NCBI GenBank assembly: GCA_963804875.1
Contig: CAWDRX010000003.1
Coordinates: 139,838-203,837 of the forward strand
Length of the DNA stretch: 64,000 nt
Reading direction: 5' to 3'
Source: an uncultured Verrucomicrobiae bacterium
GTDB lineage: Bacteria > Verrucomicrobiota > Verrucomicrobiia > Chthoniobacterales > UBA10450
A program made the translations under genes and the position numbers. The notes below the pieces were generated by a model that was not told where the DNA came from, ran no database searches, and saw nothing but the letters and a program-made list of their open reading frames with translations. Positions 18,146 through 31,987 of this stretch are shown one piece after another. Position 1 is the stretch's first letter, and every line of letters starts with the position of its first letter.

Positions 18146-20136
18146 TCACCGACGGAGTTTCGTGGAAGTGTATTCGCACCTTCGCTGTCGTCGTGGCAGG
18201 GCCAGGCACGGTCCAGAATACCATCCGGTGTCCGGTGCTTGAGTCGCGATTGTTATCCACGTGGCACCGTTGTCGGTGCTGTAATCAATGTCGACAGTGT
18301 TGCCGCCGGGGTTTTGTCGGGTCCAGTGGATGTTTCGGTGCTGACCGATCGTCCAGATTTCTCCGCCGTTCGGCCTGAGAAGCGTGAGGAATGGTCTGCG
18401 CTGCACAGTGAAGTTGGCGTCGCTCTGGTCTGCGATGGACCGATTGCGTTGCAACAAAATCTTCACCCTGCCCTGAGTGGTAGGGAAATTATCGACATGC
18501 CACGAATAGCTTAACGATAACGCCGGGATGTCCTGCGCGATCCTAAACCAGGTAGCTCCACCGTTGCGGCTGTATTGGATTATCAGACGGTCGCTGTTCG
18601 TCAGGTTGGCGCCCTCCCACTGGATCTCCTGGACGCTCCCCATGGACCAGACTTCTCCGCCGTTAGGCTCGATGACGCGCAGCGGCGACGTTGTCGGCGT
18701 AGGTGTTGGTGTGGGCGCAGTGTTGGATATGGCCCACCACAATATCTCCCGCCGGTGTTCAAGAACTGAAGCTAGCCGCAGCAATTAGATCCAGCCCAAA
18801 CGATCATTTCACTGCCGGTCCAGACTGCAGTGTGTTGGTATCGGGCAAATGGCGCGTATGTGGTACTGGTGGCAGTCCACGTATTCGTGCCGGGATCGTA
18901 TCTCCCACCGGTGTCTCGATAGCCGGTGATGTCAACTCCACCCCAAACGATCATTTCATTGCCGGTCCAGACTGCACTGTGACCAGTTCGGGCAGAAGGC
19001 GCGTTAGTGGTGCTGGTGGCCGTCCAACTATTCGTACCTGGATTGTATCTCCCGCCACTGTCGAGGCCCAGGGGAGAGGGGTCCTGATTTCCGCCCCAGA
19101 CGATCATTTCATTGCCGGTCCACACTGCGGTGTGAAGGGCTCGCGGAGATGGCGCGTTGTGGTGGTAGTCGGTGTCCAACTATTAGTGCTGGGATTGTAT
19201 CTCCCGCCTGTGTTAGTGGCAGGGTATCCACCCCATACGATCATTTCGCTGCCGGTCCAGACTGCCGTTTGCTGGGCGCGGGCAGAGGGTGCGTTGGTGG
19301 TGCTGGTGGCTGTCCAACTGTCCGTGCTGGGATTGTATCTCCCGCCACTATTTAAATTCATCGTGTCGCCGGATCCGCCCCAGACGACTATTGCGCTGCC
19401 GGTCCAGATTGCGGTGTGAAGGTATCGGCCAGCGGGCGCGTTGGTGGTGCTTGTGGCTGTCCAACTATCCGTGATGGGATTGTATTTCCCGCCGGTATTC
19501 AAAAGGTTGGCGTTATTAGAGCCACCCCAAACGATCATTTCGACTGCCAGTCCAGATTGCGGTGTGCCACTCTCGGCCAGCGGGCGCATTGGTGGTGCTT
19601 GTGGCTGTCCAACTATCTGTGCTGGGATTGTATCTCCCGCCGGTGTTCAAATCCGGGTTGCCGCCCCACCCGCCCCAGACAATCATTTCACTGCCGGTCC
19701 AGATTGCCGTGTGATTGGTTCGGACAGAGGGGACATGAAACATGCTCGTAGCCCCCCACTGGTCACTGAACACGCGCTCGGCAATCTCCGGCAGAGTGTA
19801 CACAACTTGCTCCGATGTTGTTGCCACCGACATCGCACCGAGCACATCGGTCTGCTGGCGATTCAACGTGCTGAGTTTGATCTTGCGCCGAAAGATCCGC
19901 GAGCCAGCGCTCTGTTAATATTGGTCTGGCCAAACACTCAGCGATGACAGCCGGATCATTTCCGAGAGCATCAAACAATTCGCGGAGGACATCCGGCTGT
20001 TTTGTGTCCCGGGCCATTCGCTCCATCTCGGCCTGCAATTGCGGAGCAGTGATTGGCTTTTGCCGTAGTTTTCCAGAGCGAGTGAGTCGCGCAAATAGCC
20101 TGCGACTTTGTTTTCCAATTGCGCCTGAGACATCAC
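18146..20136 (-). pseudogene. Disrupted gene, or low-quality stretch. Kelch-repeat beta-propeller fused to two C-terminal Kre9/KNH-like Ser/Thr-rich Ig-like domains. It is spread over at least five reading-frame changes.
   Basis: Overlapping minus-strand ORFs 19915..20136, 19763..20038, 19516..19866, 19104..19589, 18772..19179 and 18146..18784 carry successive Kelch blades (RYNPSTDSWTATSTTNAP...HTAVWTGSEMIVWGG). They are followed by PNGGEVW...IQW...YSxxGGATW domains. Confidence 0.5.
18790..19700. repeat. Near-identical tandem repeats of about 150 bp, each encoding one Kelch blade.
   Basis: The motifs cccaaacgatcatttcattgccggtccagactgc and gtccaactattcgtgctgggattgtatctcccgcc recur at least six times with few substitutions. 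Confidence 0.6.
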
Positions 20137-20520
20137 CGAATCGAGCGACGGCTTGGGATTAGGATTCTCCTTTGGCCAAATACGGTGACGCCAGTAAACG
20201 TCTTCAATTGCTCCGCTGATATGCTACGCGCTCGACGAAGCTGAACGCTCGGGATTGGCTCTGTTTTCGGCGTTGTCGGCGATTGAAATGCTGGAACCAA
20301 GCGCGACAAAGACTACCGACAGAAACACAGCCGACGCGGCGCTGCGGATGATATGGTCATGGATTTTGCTTTTCGTTTTCATCTCTTGTTTTTCTTCCCG
20401 GAAAAATTCCTCAATAAATTTTGGAAGAAGTAAAGCCGAATTCGCCTGCGCAAGCTCCGCTTATCGTGCGAATTGCTAAGCGCTCGCGCTAAATCGTAAG
20501 ATCGAAATTCGAAAATAGAG

Positions 20521-20594
20521 TGGGCCTGACTGGGCTCGAACCAGTGACCCTGCGCTTATCAAGCGCATGCTCTAACCAACTGAGCTACAGGCCC
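20521..20594 (-). tRNA. tRNA-Ile (anticodon GAT).
   Basis: Minus-strand GGGCCTGTAGCTCAGTTGGTTAGAGCATGCGCTTGATAAGCGCAGGGTCACTGGTTCGAGCCCAGTCAGGCCCA folds as a cloverleaf. Anticodon loop is TTGATAA. CCA is not encoded. Confidence 0.9.
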
Positions 20595-20621
20595 GTTGCG
20601 GCGGCTTGACCGCCGGATTTT

Positions 20622-20710
20622 AGATTTGCGATTGCCGATTTGCGATTTGTGTTCGTGGCGCGCCTCGCGCGCGCATTTACTTAAATCGGCAATCGTAAAT
20701 CGCAAATCGA
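20622..20710. repeat. Large imperfect inverted repeat (arms gatttgcgattgccgatttgcgattt and aaatcggcaatcgtaaatcgcaaatcg) around a GC-rich palindrome ggcgcgcctcgcgcgcgc.
   Basis: Seen directly in the sequence. It lies between the GIY-YIG gene stop and tRNA-Ile. Confidence 0.4.
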
Positions 20711-20738
20711 AAATGAAATGGCGAGACAAGATCTCGAA

Positions 20739-20987
20739 CTAGAGATGTCGCTTTACGAATGCACGACCTGAAGCCGATTTCAGATATCGCTCGAATTGAG
20801 CTGCCCGAGTTCGATCGGACAGTGCAATGTAGGTTTTCAGTCGCCATGGCTTCCATTTTGCGATGTGAACAATACGGCCAGAGTTGTGATTTTTGAGACG
20901 CGTCCGCAGATCGTCTGTTAGGCCCGTATAGAATCTTTCAGGATCCACTTCGCTCTGCAGAATATAAACGTAGATGAATTTGCTCAT
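20739..20987 (-). CDS. GIY-YIG nuclease-family small protein.
   Basis: FIYVYILQSEVDPERFYTGLTDDLRTRLKNHN matches the GIY-YIG core. Start set at MSKF. Confidence 0.75.
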   Translation of the reverse strand: MSKFIYVYILQSEVDPERFYTGLTDDLRTRLKNHNSGRIVHIAKWKPWRLKTYIALSDRTRAAQFERYLKSASGRAFVKRHL

Positions 20988-21102
20988 AACTGGCTTGCCG
21001 AGTCGTAGCTCGCGCGGAATGCGGGGCAAGCCAAAAAGAGGTCCGCCTTCGCCAAGGCTACGGCGCGACAGTCTTCGCTCTTTCTACGACGCGAGCGAAG
21101 AC

Positions 21103-21175
21103 TGGAGGCAAGGGGATTCGAACCCCTGACTTCCAGCTTGCAAAGCTGGCGCTCTACCAACTGAGCTATGCCCCC
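21103..21175 (-). tRNA. tRNA-Ala (anticodon TGC).
   Basis: Minus-strand GGGGGCATAGCTCAGTTGGTAGAGCGCCAGCTTTGCAAGCTGGAAGTCAGGGGTTCGAATCCCCTTGCCTCCA. Carries the G3:U70 alanine identity pair. Confidence 0.9.
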
Positions 21176-21227
21176 GAACAGAACTGCGGAATGTAGTTTG
21201 CCGGTCGCAGATTGCAATCGGAGCCGA

Positions 21228-23307
21228 TCACCAAATCCGGGCGCGTTGCTCAGGTGCGATGAACATTTTGTCGCTGGGCTGGATTTTAAAGGCGTCGTAC
21301 CAGACATCCGTGTTTCGAGTCGGACCAATCACACGAAATTGACGAGGGGAATGTGGGTCGCTTACGACCTGCTTTTTAACGTAATCATCGCTGACTTTTC
21401 CGCGCCAGGCTTGCGCCCACCCGAGAAGCACGCGCTGATCGCCCGTGTAACCATCGAGGACTGGCGCCGGCTGTCCTTTGAGCGAAGCACGATAGGCGTC
21501 AAGCGCAAGGGTGAGGCCGCCCAGGTCCGCGATGTTTTCGCCCATGGTCAATTCTCCGTTTACATGGACGCCGGGAATCGGTTCGTATTTTGAGTATTGG
21601 GCGCCTAGCATTTTTGCTCGTGCCTGGAATGTGTCCGCGTCTTTCTTTGTCCACCAGTCGTGCAACGCACCGGATGCGTCGATCTTGCGGCCCTGATCGT
21701 CGAATCCGTGCGTGAGCTCGTGTCCGATGACGCCACCCGCCGCGCCGTAGTTAATTGCGGGATCAGCATCCGCGTCAAAAATCGGCGGCTGTAGAATTCC
21801 CGCCGGAAAAACAATATCCCGCAAACTTCCGTTGTAGGCGTCGTTCGTTTGCGGCGTCATGCTCCAGTCGGTTCGATCAACCGGTTTTGAAAATCGGTCG
21901 GTGTAAAAGTCCCAATCGAGCTGCGCGCAGCGTTTGACGTTGCCGATTAAATCGTCGCCGCGAATGACCAGCTTCGTGTAATCACGCGGATGATCTGGAT
22001 AGCCCACCTTAATCGTGTATGTGTCGAGTTTCTTCAGCGCTTCCTTTTTCGTCTCCGGACCCATCCAATCGAGCTTTTCGATCCTTGCGCGATACGCGGC
22101 TTTTAGATTAGTGACCAGATCCTGGATTTTCTGTTTTGCTTCCGGTGGAAAATATTTTGCGGTGTAAAGCTGACCGACTCCGAAGCCCATCGTTCCGAAG
22201 GTCCCAAAGCGATCTCCAACAAGAAAATCGCCACCGCTGACAGCTGTGATCGCGCGTTTCCAACGCGCCTGCTGTTGCTTCTGACCGGAGAGTGTTTTGT
22301 CGTGTAGCTCGAAGTAAGCGTCGGCGAATGGCTTAGAGAGATATGGCGAGGCGTTATCTGCGATGTGAAATGCCTGCCAGGCCCGAATCGTGTCGATCGG
22401 TGTCTTTGAATACGCGTCAACAATTTTCGGGAAAGGCGCTTTTCTCAGCAACAATGACGCGCGTCAGGTTCGGCATCTTTGCTTCGGCAAGAAATCTGTC
22501 CCACGCGAATCCGGGGACAAACTTCTTCAGATCTTGAAGCGACATCGGATTGTAGATCGCATTGAAGTCGCGCTGTTGCGCCTTTGTCCAGCTGGCCTCC
22601 GCGATTCTGGTTTCGAAATCGACGACCTCTTTGGCGTTTTTGTCAGCGTCAGGCCAGTTCAACAGTTTCAAAACTGTGGCGACATAATTTTGGTAGGCGC
22701 TCTTCTGGGCGGCGAAATCCGGTTTCAGATAATAATCGCGATCGGGCAGACCGATTCCCGCCTGTGTCAGATAGAAAGCGTATTTTTTGGGGTCCTTTAA
22801 ATCGGCGTCGATCATTGGATTGAAGAGAGAAAATTCCAAATCAGTCGTCGTCCGGCCCATCAATGCGGCAAAATCATCGCGAGTCTTAGCATCCTTGAGA
22901 GCGCTCAGTTCAGACTCAATCGGCTTCGCGCCAAGTTGCTCAATCCGCGCTTCGTCCGTGAAAGAGCGGTAAAACGCTCCGACTTTTTCCGCCAGCGTTG
23001 CTGGATTTTCAATCGGTTTCGCGCCAAGCGATTCCATCATCTCACGCAGCCGCTGTTCGGTCAGATCGGTCATTGCGAGCCGGAGCGAGTACGCCGGTTT
23101 GTCCGGAGGAATCTGCGTTTTGTCGATCCAGATTCCGTTGGCGAAACGAAAGAAGTCGTCGCCCGGTTTGGTTGCTGAATCCATTCCGGGCAGATCAAAT
23201 CCCCAGGCGCCGTATTTCAATTTCGTTGGAGGTGTGTCTTCGGCGTGGGCGAGAAGCGGATAGCAGCAGAGAACGGCGAGTAGAAGAATGCGCAACAGTG
23301 AACTCAT
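21228..23307 (-). CDS. M13-family zinc metallopeptidase (PepO/neprilysin-like). Secreted. Split by one apparent frameshift near 22417..22454.
   Basis: ORF 22417..23397 carries the M13 N-terminal domain and a signal peptide (MSSLLRILLLAVL). ORF 21228..22454 carries the catalytic domain with VIGHELTHGFDDQG (HExxH). The two read in different frames and overlap by 38 nt. Confidence 0.7.
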
Positions 23308-23418
23308 AAGATGGAGCGAGACAATAAACGAACAAAGGCAGATTGAGAAATTGGGAAGGCCGGTTCGTTGTATGGCACACCAGAAATTGCGACGCACCAG
23401 CGTTGCAATGTGGCGAAA

Positions 23419-29846: not shown

Positions 29847-31412
<1,566 letters not shown>

Positions 31413-31987
31413 CCGTTAAAAACGTTACCCCGCGGTTGCGGGGAAAGTTTGAAATCCCGCGTGAGCGGGATCGATCTGACTTTCATTACCTGAATCCTCT
31501 TGCGAGCATCCAGGGCTTGTCCGATCTAAATCTTTCATTTCAAAGATGATCGACAGATAACGCACAATTCAATGTTTACTGTCTTTACACCATCGACGGA
31601 TTTCCTGTTGAAATCCACGACCACACTGTCAAAGATCATCCTTCGCGTACACGGCAAAGCCCAACCTCAACAATCATCGACCGCAGAGAATTGGCTTACC
31701 GGGCCAGAGAAGAACACCGACTCCGCTGATGGAACCGGTCCCGCCGTTTCGCGGGATTCGTAAACTAGCAGACTCCCCCAGCGAGTCAAAGGGAATTTTG
31801 CAAACTTTCGATAATTTTAGAATTTGTCGCTATCTTTCTCTGGCACTGCTCACCGCCAAGACACGGATTCCAATATCATCGGCCGGAGAAGCCCACAATA
31901 TTATCCACGATTTCATGCGGCCTGAATTGCCTTGACCTGTCATTTGGTTCCTGATTCGCTCGGTTGCAATCCTCGACACTTCGTAAA

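Follow-up and report, generated by a model that had tools for sequence, protein, structure and literature searches.

What is a gene for a minimal nuclease doing between two tRNA genes of a bacterial chromosome? The question is raised by a locus of an uncultured Verrucomicrobiae bacterium (GenBank assembly GCA_963804875.1, contig CAWDRX010000003.1) that lies in a stretch of 64,000 nucleotides, here called the window; positions are counted from its first nucleotide. On the minus strand, tRNA-Ala(TGC) is followed by the gene for an 82-amino-acid GIY-YIG protein, a long inverted repeat and tRNA-Ile(GAT). We think it rather probable that this region represents one resident copy of a compact, site-specific cassette whose place is the 3' flank of tRNA and transfer-messenger RNA (tmRNA) genes. 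Its membership in the cassette family described below is much more certain than that reading, and a mechanism driven by the nuclease is less certain. The parts of the locus are as follows.

21103..21175, minus strand: tRNA-Ala(TGC) (ARAGORN; Rfam tRNA model, 77.5 bits)
20988..21102 (115 nt), minus strand: conserved structured module (nhmmer, E = 2e-27)
20739..20987, minus strand: GIY-YIG nuclease gene (Pfam PF01541)
20595..20738, minus strand: 144-nt spacer from the GIY-YIG stop codon to tRNA-Ile, holding the long inverted repeat
20520..20594, minus strand: tRNA-Ile(GAT) (ARAGORN; Rfam, 72.2 bits)

The first-pass annotation had placed a GIY-YIG gene exactly between two tRNA genes, and ARAGORN, Rfam and Pfam (PF01541, E = 1.7e-13, 51.1 bits against a cutoff of 22.6) bear this out. 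Relatives of the locus were gathered in two samples, whose members carry labels of the form L###: 80 loci were found through the protein and at least 120 through a conserved box of the module. The protein-based sample came from a scan with a family alignment, one genome per species, of which 80 loci were kept. They belong to Chthoniobacterales and other Verrucomicrobiota, to Alphaproteobacteria including Bradyrhizobium isolates, and to metagenome-assembled genomes (MAGs) labelled Nitrospirota, Planctomycetota and deltaproteobacteria. The annotation had also allowed for an ordinary housekeeping gene with relatives in many contexts unrelated to tRNAs, but ARAGORN detected a tRNA or tmRNA gene upstream on the same strand in 68 of the 80 loci. 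This gene lay within 250 nt in 61 of them, and the modal gap between tRNA and nuclease gene was 115-125 nt. The upstream genes specify Ala (all three anticodons), Arg-CCG, Lys-TTT, Tyr-GTA, Val-TAC, Leu, Met and Ile-TAT, as well as tmRNA. Among the 12 apparent exceptions are a tmRNA truncated where its contig ends (L018), two 5'-truncated pseudo-tRNA-Ala genes (L019 and L044) and a CCA-ending pseudo-target in a protein gene.

The spacer between tRNA-Ala and the nuclease gene (20988-21102), which was overlooked in the earlier annotation, is the most conserved and most informative part of the locus. It holds a module of about 95-120 nt whose first base is the first nucleotide past the tRNA and which is conserved whichever tRNA precedes it; the nuclease gene begins 3-15 nt beyond its end. 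Read 5' to 3' on the minus strand, the window copy comprises the following segments.

21102-21091, minus strand: segment A, GTCTTCGCTCGC
21090-21081, minus strand: P1 loop
21080-21071, minus strand: segment A', GAGCGAAGAC
21069-21041, minus strand: P2, a hairpin interrupted by GUA, inner hairpin, GAA
21040-21016, minus strand: U-rich and variable stretch
21015-21002, minus strand: segment A'', GCGCGAGCTACGAC
21001-20991, minus strand: box tail, TCGGCAAGCCA, also written UCGGCAAGCCA

A hidden Markov model built from 35 copies and searched with nhmmer recovered the module upstream of 79 of the 80 GIY-YIG relatives, always on the strand of the gene, and only once in the 64-kb window. Two module alignments, A2 and A3, were made. 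Pairing in the helices P1 (A with A') and P2 reaches 97%, and 9 of their 20 pairs show compensatory changes. Their covariation score was reached by none of 500 shuffles, and shifted registers are about 40% paired. Segment A also pairs with A'' in a long-range helix that is mutually exclusive with P1 and carries compensatory changes in 7 of 11 pairs, some of them past the P1 stem. Both patterns, P1/P2 and A:A'', were repeated on an independent 40-copy alignment sampled by module, in which the box was fixed by the search pattern. Switches between GUC/GAC and GCC/GGC occur in P1 and in P2 independently of each other, and A'' tracks A; the covariation signal therefore does not stem from a single clade split. 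P1 can be extended by 2 bp, as the terminal CA of the tRNA pairs with the UG that follows A'. Many alphaproteobacterial copies are permuted and carry the A''-box segment inside the P1 loop, not at the 3' end, which implies that the order of the two A-complementary segments is interchangeable.

An E-value scan of the window region with Rfam 15 returned only tRNAs and chance matches, and gathering-threshold scans of 53 related loci returned only tRNA, tmRNA and rRNA. Likewise, in the full-text literature, of which our coverage was incomplete, so that an earlier account may exist, no GIY-YIG gene or repeat was found described at the flanks of tRNA genes.

Several other structures and roles were considered for the module. 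A third helix, pairing the 3' box with the 5' strand of P2 as in the RNAfold predictions for short forms, was rejected: in alignment A2 the variable GUAGC of P2 changes without a compensating change in the box, and where the closing pairs of P1 and P2 differ, A'' tracks A and not the P2 strand. A guide-RNA function gave no signal, as the longest words shared between the variable region and its own tRNA measured 5.1 nt compared to 4.9 nt for other tRNAs. Mimicry of a tRNA mini-helix, formed by GGATGCACTAGCGGGAGCGT at the right end with the tRNA-end duplicate, was unsupported; the 5' strand is constant across tRNA types. Compared with self-cleaving ribozymes (hepatitis delta virus-like, hatchet, twister and hammerhead), the module showed no convincing correspondence, and Rfam gave no match. 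On the plus strand, an open frame at 20988-21129 (…GPPSPRLRRDSLRSFYDASEDW…) runs antisense to the module and the tRNA end. Such antisense frames of the module repeat may feed spurious hypothetical proteins into annotations of soil bacteria.

The module was also sampled without the protein, by an exact-pattern scan of metagenome contigs for its 3' box, and at least 120 loci were obtained. Among the loci listed, 85 have a same-strand tRNA or tmRNA gene no more than 200 nt upstream and 12 more lie at contig ends. Fourteen tRNA types precede the module in these loci (Ala, Val, Ile, Leu, Lys, Met, Tyr, Thr, Phe, Ser, Asp, Arg, His and selenocysteine), and so does tmRNA. The box follows 60-200 nt past the tRNA in 45 listed loci (the standard form) and 11-30 nt past it in 40 (the permuted form), and the orientation of the module is always that of the tRNA. 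Behind modules that lack a GIY-YIG gene stand the next tRNA, unrelated genes or nothing recognisable, the next tRNA sometimes being only 5-10 nt away (L082, L096, L141, L154 and L200). Three loci have the module in an intact rRNA operon, in the order 16S, tRNA-Ala, module, tRNA-Ile, 23S (L154), 16S, tRNA-Ile, tRNA-Ala, module, 23S (L128) or 16S, tRNA-Ile, module, tRNA-Ala, 23S (L187). It follows from the order in L154 that the tRNA-Ala/tRNA-Ile pair of the window is a spacer-type arrangement, and that a state with module and without nuclease gene exists at the equivalent Ala-Ile site.

The position of the module follows a simple rule. CCA stands directly before 112 of 128 module copies with an intact 5' end, and before 81 of the 82 that adjoin a tRNA without a gap. 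The remaining 16 of the 128 are second copies right after a GIY-YIG stop codon or copies within tandem arrays. Even copies away from tRNAs are preceded by ...CCCACCA or ...CCA. Verrucomicrobial tRNA genes do not encode the CCA tail, and the triplet there is C71-C72-A73; the tRNA-Ala gene of the window, for instance, ends ...CUCCA. This would account for the dominance of Ala and tmRNA in Verrucomicrobiota, as CCA must be supplied by C71-C72-A73 there, while any tRNA could serve where CCA is encoded.

Some individual loci add further observations. Arrays of 9-14 tRNA genes use the module as inter-tRNA spacer (L096, L141, L143, L155, L186 and L200), in places almost without a gap: in L096 it is 1 nt away from either neighbour, and in L141 and L200 the following tRNA begins after 1-3 nt. 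The 5'-truncated pseudo-tRNA-Ala(CGC) beside the cassette in L019 (2816-2885) ends ...CTCCACCA, CCA included; a genuine Verrucomicrobial tRNA-Ala(CGC) (L008, 2804-2876) ends ...CTCCA without that CCA. This single case may be a hint that the fragment derives from a mature tRNA or from a donor that encodes CCA. Directly behind the module after tRNA-Lys(TTT) in L092 (from about nt 255) lies a small zinc-ribbon-like gene, MGRTY(L/F)FECSxCGYRARVSGG..., which recurs behind the second module, with an intervening GIY-YIG gene, in L057, L069 and L077. We regard it as a putative second type of gene served by the module.

Several loci record arrivals at one and the same site. Two loci (L017 and L031) carry two intact 82-amino-acid genes behind one tmRNA, 50% identical and each with its own module, and another (L094) has two stacked genes at 41% identity. 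This degree of divergence argues for independent arrivals at one site, not tandem duplication; the stacked genes of L067 (90%) and L080 (98%) are duplication-like. Presence and absence can be compared at tRNA-Lys, where L092 has tRNA-Lys, module and zinc-ribbon gene, and L069, L077 and L057 have tRNA-Lys, module, GIY-YIG gene and module before the zinc-ribbon gene of L092. In four loci (L015, L032, L037 and L049) the cassette stands in a minus-strand membrane-protein gene, close to its 3' end and after ...TCGAATCCCGAGGCCCACCA, a site that mimics T-loop, acceptor stem and CCA; about 93 nt of the gene end are present on both sides of the cassette. The stacked divergent copies, the presence/absence difference and the insertion at a CCA site in a protein gene together indicate that the cassette has apparent site-specific mobility.

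Further substantiating turnover, tandem module arrays reach 7 copies in L038 and 4 in L071, and frameshifted genes and 3' fragments of genes occur among the GIY-YIG copies. In 11 of 88 loci, all at Verrucomicrobial tRNA-Ala genes, a second copy of the final 16 nt of the upstream tRNA stands 25-110 nt past the GIY-YIG stop codon, compared to 0 of 81 in an upstream control. A fixed target duplication from a staggered cut was nevertheless rejected, given 16 nt at tRNA-Ala, about 93 nt at the protein gene and none at most loci.

Two details of these loci stand on their own. The orphan left-hand copy of the last 30 codons of the membrane-protein gene, about 95 nt to the left of the module, keeps its frame and stop codon; between L037 and L049 it differs at 10 of 96 nt, all synonymous. 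Left copies compared with left, and right with right, are 89% identical, against 77-86% for left versus right within a genome. A fragment expected to be a pseudogene thus looks constrained as coding sequence. Moreover, L064, L079 and L051 have the last ~20 codons of a second GIY-YIG gene (...FEKYLKSGSGHAFAKRHFW) just after the stop codon of the full-length gene; this is apparently what is left of an older copy that a newer one displaced.

The cassette, then, is a module flush after CCA with a minimal GIY-YIG gene, both co-oriented with the tRNA. The module occurs with and without the nuclease gene and behind tRNAs of many specificities, the same sites have been occupied recurrently and independently, and MAG assignments together with the Bradyrhizobium isolates place the cassette in Verrucomicrobiota, Alphaproteobacteria, Nitrospirota and Planctomycetota.

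What kind of protein does it encode? The open reading frame (ORF) of the window copy runs from an ATG at 20987 to a stop codon at 20739-20741 (249 bp, 82 amino acids) and could be extended to a TTG at 21029. A database search with the protein gave 1765 homologues at E <= 0.001. The best 120 of these are 71-89% identical and, where the organism is named, come from Verrucomicrobia or Chthoniobacterales; most are exactly 82 amino acids long, which supports the ATG at 20987 as the true start. Among 28 aligned sequences Y8, Y20 and N35 do not vary, Y6, R30, H34 and E66 are nearly invariant, and a C-terminal YLKSxSGRAF motif is conserved in the subfamily. By their position, the conserved tyrosines, Arg and Glu are putative catalytic-type residues of the GIY-YIG fold.

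A family profile search matched the UPF0213 structure 1ZG2 (E = 3e-7) and Slx1 nuclease domains (1e-3 to 8e-3), and none of its 7 matches at E <= 1 was a UvrC or I-TevI chain. Consistent with this, the AlphaFold2 model (mean predicted local distance difference test, pLDDT, 82) shows the order beta-beta-alpha-beta-alpha-alpha, and its top Foldseek matches are all GIY-YIG domains, at a probability of 0.91-1.0 for UPF0213 and Slx1 compared to <=0.25 for UvrC. The catalytic domain takes up the whole 82 amino acids, with no separate DNA-binding domain. As judged from these comparisons, the protein is a stand-alone catalytic domain of the Slx1/UPF0213 branch, not of the I-TevI/Seg type, and is predicted to be a nuclease by family membership. 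The label "homing-endonuclease-like" of the first-pass annotation does not suit an isolated catalytic domain whose nearest relatives are UPF0213 and Slx1 and which lacks phage relatives. No NCBIfam model matches the protein. A defence system or a phage origin was rejected, since PADLOC gave only a marginal partial match (E = 0.0016), PHROGs gave none, tblastn against 50,697 phage records gave zero matches, and searches of the plasmid and viral-contig collections yielded no relatives.

Compared to its orthologues behind Ala-TGC, the window copy has a ratio of nonsynonymous to synonymous substitution rates (dN/dS) of 0.07-0.12, about 0.1 overall with saturated dS, which points to strong purifying selection on the protein. 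The locus of one relative (L113) is collinear with window positions 24468-18118 at 89%, and more distant relatives differ only in the neighbouring genes. All sampled close relatives, which were themselves sampled through the gene or the module, carry the gene at the Ala-Ile locus. Together with the dN/dS of about 0.1, this synteny argues that the window copy is an old resident, apparently under selection, and not a recent insertion. The earlier suggestion of a mobile or selfish insertion is supported for the family, which behaves like a site-specific selfish insertion.

How such a cassette could persist and spread can be outlined as follows. Module and nuclease gene together would form an autonomous selfish element aimed at CCA-ending sites, and module-only copies would be its non-autonomous or decayed derivatives. 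Transcription would occur mainly by read-through from the tRNA promoter, and tRNA 3' processing would free the downstream RNA, so that the host would come to no harm from a cassette lodged in a tRNA trailer or an rRNA spacer. The nuclease may help spread or retention by cutting unoccupied targets, or folded module DNA, with repair copying the cassette. A further step, which we take only tentatively, is that the family may represent a previously unrecognised class of mobile elements, in which the module inserts strand-specifically 3' of a terminal CCA and the autonomous form encodes only an Slx1-like nuclease. The sites of such a class would be tRNA, tmRNA and rRNA-spacer tRNA genes and occasional CCA-ending mimics, and the competing A:A' and A:A'' helices would be part of recognition or processing, at the level of single-stranded DNA or RNA. 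The protein itself is a new member of the known UPF0213/Slx1-like family; it is the tRNA-flush system of module and nuclease that is without a known description.

A number of points weigh against a selfish cassette of this kind. The GIY-YIG gene stands behind the module in only 33 of at least 120 listed loci, leaving 87 without it; with two thirds of the module copies lacking the gene, the nuclease may be a passenger and not the driver. A catalytic domain of 82 amino acids has no evident route to recognising CCA or any other specific sequence, and to our knowledge GIY-YIG chemistry does not join strands. The absence of relatives from the phage, plasmid and viral-contig collections means that no transfer vehicle is identified. 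The window copy itself is old and stable, its order tRNA-Ala/GIY-YIG/tRNA-Ile being syntenic across Udaeobacter-like genomes, and it has neither a downstream duplicate of the tRNA end nor a second module. Its strong purifying selection is explained equally well by a domesticated host function, and the proteins of the family group mostly by tRNA context. P2 in the window is followed by the U-rich tract CUCUUUUU, which might terminate tRNA-Ala transcripts before the gene. A weak TTGCCC-N16-TACGAC can be read by eye upstream of the ORF; a sigma-70 promoter scan of 20400-21300 reported zero sites, and by eye there are only weak matches at 7-8 of 12 positions. Finally, kinship among sequences can inflate covariation statistics such as those given for P1, P2 and A:A'', and the phylum assignments of the relatives rest mainly on MAG labels.

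Some of these points would fit a domesticated host factor, which we consider unlikely: a minimal Slx1-like nuclease that serves the cell at heavily transcribed tRNA, tmRNA and rRNA loci, where it would clear R-loops, hairpins or stalled-fork structures or act on RNA, with the module as a cis-regulatory leader coupling its expression to tRNA transcription. The Slx1 clade is structure-specific, not sequence-specific, and a nuclease with such a task would be expected to show what the window copy shows, namely a dN/dS of about 0.1 (even with dS saturated), long-standing synteny at the Ala-Ile locus and a family that is absent from phage and plasmid collections. A TrmH-type tRNA methyltransferase fused to a prokaryotic Slx1-like domain, noted earlier and taken as a hint of a role in RNA metabolism (Dunin-Horkawicz et al. 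2006, PMC1564403), points in the same direction. The family as a whole is harder to reconcile with host service: highly similar non-coding modules lie behind many tRNAs in distant phyla, most of them without a nuclease gene, divergent copies are stacked at one site, presence varies at tRNA-Lys, a pseudo-target inside a protein gene has been entered, and gene copies are found frameshifted or in fragments.

Alternatively, the module could be the real unit, either a small RNA with a cellular or regulatory role, set free from precursors of tRNA or rRNA by processing of the RNase P/RNase Z type, or a repeat resembling a miniature inverted-repeat transposable element (MITE) and moved by another enzyme, with the GIY-YIG gene as a passenger that uses the module for its expression and whose nuclease would mobilise nothing. 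The two competing helices, both covarying, would suit an RNA switch, and the 87 listed module loci without the gene, the almost exact filling of inter-tRNA spacers in L096, L141, L154 and L200, the copies inside rRNA spacers and the possibility of other following genes, such as the zinc-ribbon gene of L092, L057, L069 and L077, are all in keeping with an independent module. Set against them is the reverse association, as 79 of 80 GIY-YIG relatives carry the module and the gene is essentially never without it. At tRNA-Lys the variable unit is module plus GIY-YIG gene, no other transposase or recombinase candidate recurs beside the module in the 200 loci inspected, and the variable region has no complementarity specific to its own tRNA. 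We judge this explanation rather improbable as well.

The cassette reading also bears on the rRNA genes. The 16S rRNA gene (29857..31419, minus strand; Rfam SSU model, 1522 bits) lies about 8.7 kb upstream of tRNA-Ala on the same strand, with protein-coding genes (~8.6 kb) between them, so that the rRNA genes are unlinked in this genome. It stands without 23S, 5S or spacer tRNA genes beside it, and Rfam detected no 23S or 5S gene (no LSU match) in the 64-kb window. By comparison with L154, the tRNA-Ala/tRNA-Ile pair is derived from an rRNA spacer. Two relatives (L030 and L038) have an operon that stops at 16S, tRNA-Ala, module array and GIY-YIG gene, followed by an unrelated gene on the opposite strand; these are circumstantial, suggestive grounds for the idea that a GIY-YIG gene broke up the rRNA operon. 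These features, and the reported precedent of the GIY-YIG homing endonuclease SegB in a tRNA cluster of phage T4 (PMC13096335), would favour a recent classical homing endonuclease that settled between the tRNAs and helped to split the operon, inverted repeat included. We hold this to be very unlikely: the protein lacks a DNA-binding domain as well as phage relatives and groups with Slx1/UPF0213; the locus is old and its synteny is kept, and in every close relative of the window the tRNA pair is already separate from the rRNA genes; and the inverted repeat does not depend on the cassette.

The features of the 144-nt spacer, together with one block behind tRNA-Ile, are listed here.

20722..20736, minus strand: small hairpin with U-rich tail after the GIY-YIG stop codon, a weak terminator-like site (pattern scan, fold)
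20617..20714, no strand assigned: long inverted repeat, arms around a GC palindrome at about 20654-20674
20597..20615, minus strand: small GC hairpin directly upstream of tRNA-Ile, with compensatory changes in relatives
20488..20519, minus strand: third CGATTT-type short-repeat block (direct repeat D2), directly downstream of tRNA-Ile

The arms (20617-20648 and 20683-20714) measure 32 nt at 84% complementarity, or 26 nt at 88%; each is a tandem series of GATTTGC/GCAAATC units of 7 nt. The predicted RNA fold of the spacer has -58.3 kcal/mol (z = -4.96), and none of 200 shuffles was as stable; the inverted repeat around a GC palindrome that the first-pass annotation described is real and beyond chance. 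It is not part of the GIY-YIG cassette, as it occurs only in the closest relatives, upstream of tRNA-Ile. The heptamer arms, the GC centre and the small GC hairpin before tRNA-Ile are kept in L113, L002-L005, L009 and L196. At the same place, L001, L010, L012, L016, L152 and L157 carry a different palindrome of GTGATCAGTGAACA-type units with a TTGACC box, and in L154, where the module alone fills the Ala-Ile spacer, the palindrome is absent. We read the inverted repeat as a separate, lineage-specific feature that may be part of an upstream control or insulation region of tRNA-Ile.

The repeat probably serves both as insulator or terminator and as promoter or operator. In some relatives, for example L002, complementarity between the arms is poor and yet they retain the same short repeat units, which makes a role at the DNA level, such as protein binding, as likely as an RNA hairpin. 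The inverted repeat does not fit the pattern of an intrinsic terminator: the terminator scan flags small hairpins only, on the minus strand solely 20736-20722, and the long hairpin is followed by AAAAUCCGG. A -10-like TAAAAT at 20622-20617, just 5' of the small GC hairpin, is a candidate promoter element of tRNA-Ile, and a -10-like NAAnAT can be read by eye 22-25 nt before tRNA-Ile in related loci. Three CGATTT/AAATCG blocks bracket tRNA-Ile, an inverted pair upstream and one block downstream; with the third block, tRNA-Ile itself is enclosed by inverted copies.

Scarcely credible, finally, is a remnant of an integrase-mediated islet in a tRNA gene with one cargo gene left and the tRNA-end duplicates as attL/attR, for although tyrosine-integrase sites in tRNA genes typically have cores that reach from the T-loop to the 3' end, some Verrucomicrobial tRNA-Ala loci have a 16-nt direct duplicate spanning T-loop to 3' end, and a 93-nt duplicate of the 3' end exists at one protein-gene target, no integrase gene lies beside any inspected copy, the unit measures only 0.1-0.5 kb, at least 15 tRNA species are used against one per integrase, the duplicates are missing in most loci including the window, and the shared rule is simply "after CCA".

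Returning to the site-specific cassette, we compared it with systems that share one or another of its traits. The protein has the minimal GIY-YIG fold and motifs of UPF0213/COG2827 (B. halodurans BH0048, PDB 1ZG2; E. faecalis EF2693, PDB 1YWL) and of Slx1, and prokaryotic Slx1-like members have been described as the minimal form of the GIY-YIG domain, devoid of auxiliary domains (Dunin-Horkawicz et al. 2006, PMC1564403). The present subfamily differs from UPF0213 in its own C-terminal YLKSxSGRAF motif and the lack of an NCBIfam match, and from both UPF0213 and Slx1 in its tie to a structured module at tRNA 3' ends, for which we found no report in either. Unlike eukaryotic Slx1, it has no RING-type (RING/PHD) finger and no known Slx4-like partner.

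Enzymes of the Seg and I-TevI type are members of the UvrC/homing endonuclease branch with a DNA-binding domain at the C-terminus, whereas the protein described here has 82 amino acids, belongs to the Slx1 branch, is chromosomal and always comes with a CCA-flush module. A nuclease gene between tRNA genes and selfish behaviour are shared with T4 SegB, reported as a GIY-YIG homing endonuclease gene within a phage tRNA gene cluster (PMC13096335). No intron context was seen for the GIY-YIG relatives.

Structurally, the cassette resembles IS200/IS605 elements and REP/RAYT (REPIN) systems. These are placed strand-specifically right 3' of a short target, have hairpin ends and make no fixed duplication; short non-autonomous copies outnumber coding ones, and the protein gene is flanked by repeats. 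The CCA junction (112 of 128), the fixed orientation and the hairpins at both ends of the cassette are similar, a resemblance of structure only. The cassette has no HUH/Y1 transposase, its only ORF being a hydrolytic nuclease of the GIY-YIG type, and its targets are the CCA ends of tRNA genes, not dispersed tetranucleotides. Islands and prophages with tyrosine integrases likewise target the 3' ends of tRNA and tmRNA genes, and as in them, some cassette loci duplicate the 3' segment of the target and keep the gene intact. In contrast to these islands, the window cassette measures 0.37 kb with a single ORF (0.1-0.5 kb overall), many tRNA species are used, and the junction lies after CCA, not inside a specific core. 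A recombinase gene is absent from the window cassette, and none recurs in the flanks of the inspected loci. Eukaryotic Dada transposons are residents of tRNA and small nuclear RNA genes (PMC8869645). They, R2 in ribosomal DNA and the small RNAs derived from the 3' external transcribed spacer of tRNA operons share with the cassette a safe-haven residence in multicopy or processed RNA gene regions, probably with joint transcription with the host RNA and release through its processing; enzymes, taxa and structures differ, and the analogy is one of strategy.

If the cassette reading is correct, thousands of genes annotated as "GIY-YIG nuclease family protein" or "putative endonuclease", 1765 homologues in our search, would be part of a defined element with a precise target rule (after CCA) and a conserved structured partner that is absent from Rfam. 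At about 0.37 kb and with a single protein of 82 amino acids, the element would be among the smallest self-contained selfish elements, and it would follow a safe-haven strategy in which host RNA processing removes it from tRNA trailers and rRNA spacers. Its spread across phyla would add variability to rRNA spacers and tRNA operons, and the cassette may explain part of the heterogeneity in the spacer length of rRNA operons. The many short contigs that carry such genes suggest that it could break assemblies at tRNA loci. In practical terms, the module is a new RNA/DNA motif for annotators to model, and the cassette would allow a minimal nuclease of the Slx1 type to be studied together with its natural structured substrate.

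Two features of the surroundings complete the description of the locus. On the far side of tRNA-Ile, positions 18789-19731 form a tandem repeat with a period of 147 nt (6.4 copies, 73% match), in which long ORFs on both strands encode WGG/Kelch-like repeats. The repeat region is absent in several relatives, where the neighbouring gene abuts tRNA-Ile. Beside tRNA-Ala, an M13-family peptidase gene (21228-23397, minus strand) is present as two overlapping frames of 326 and 411 amino acids. The same peptidase is a single ORF of 737-784 amino acids in L113, L003 and L016; the split in the window is apparently a frameshift, reflecting either a pseudogene or a sequencing error.

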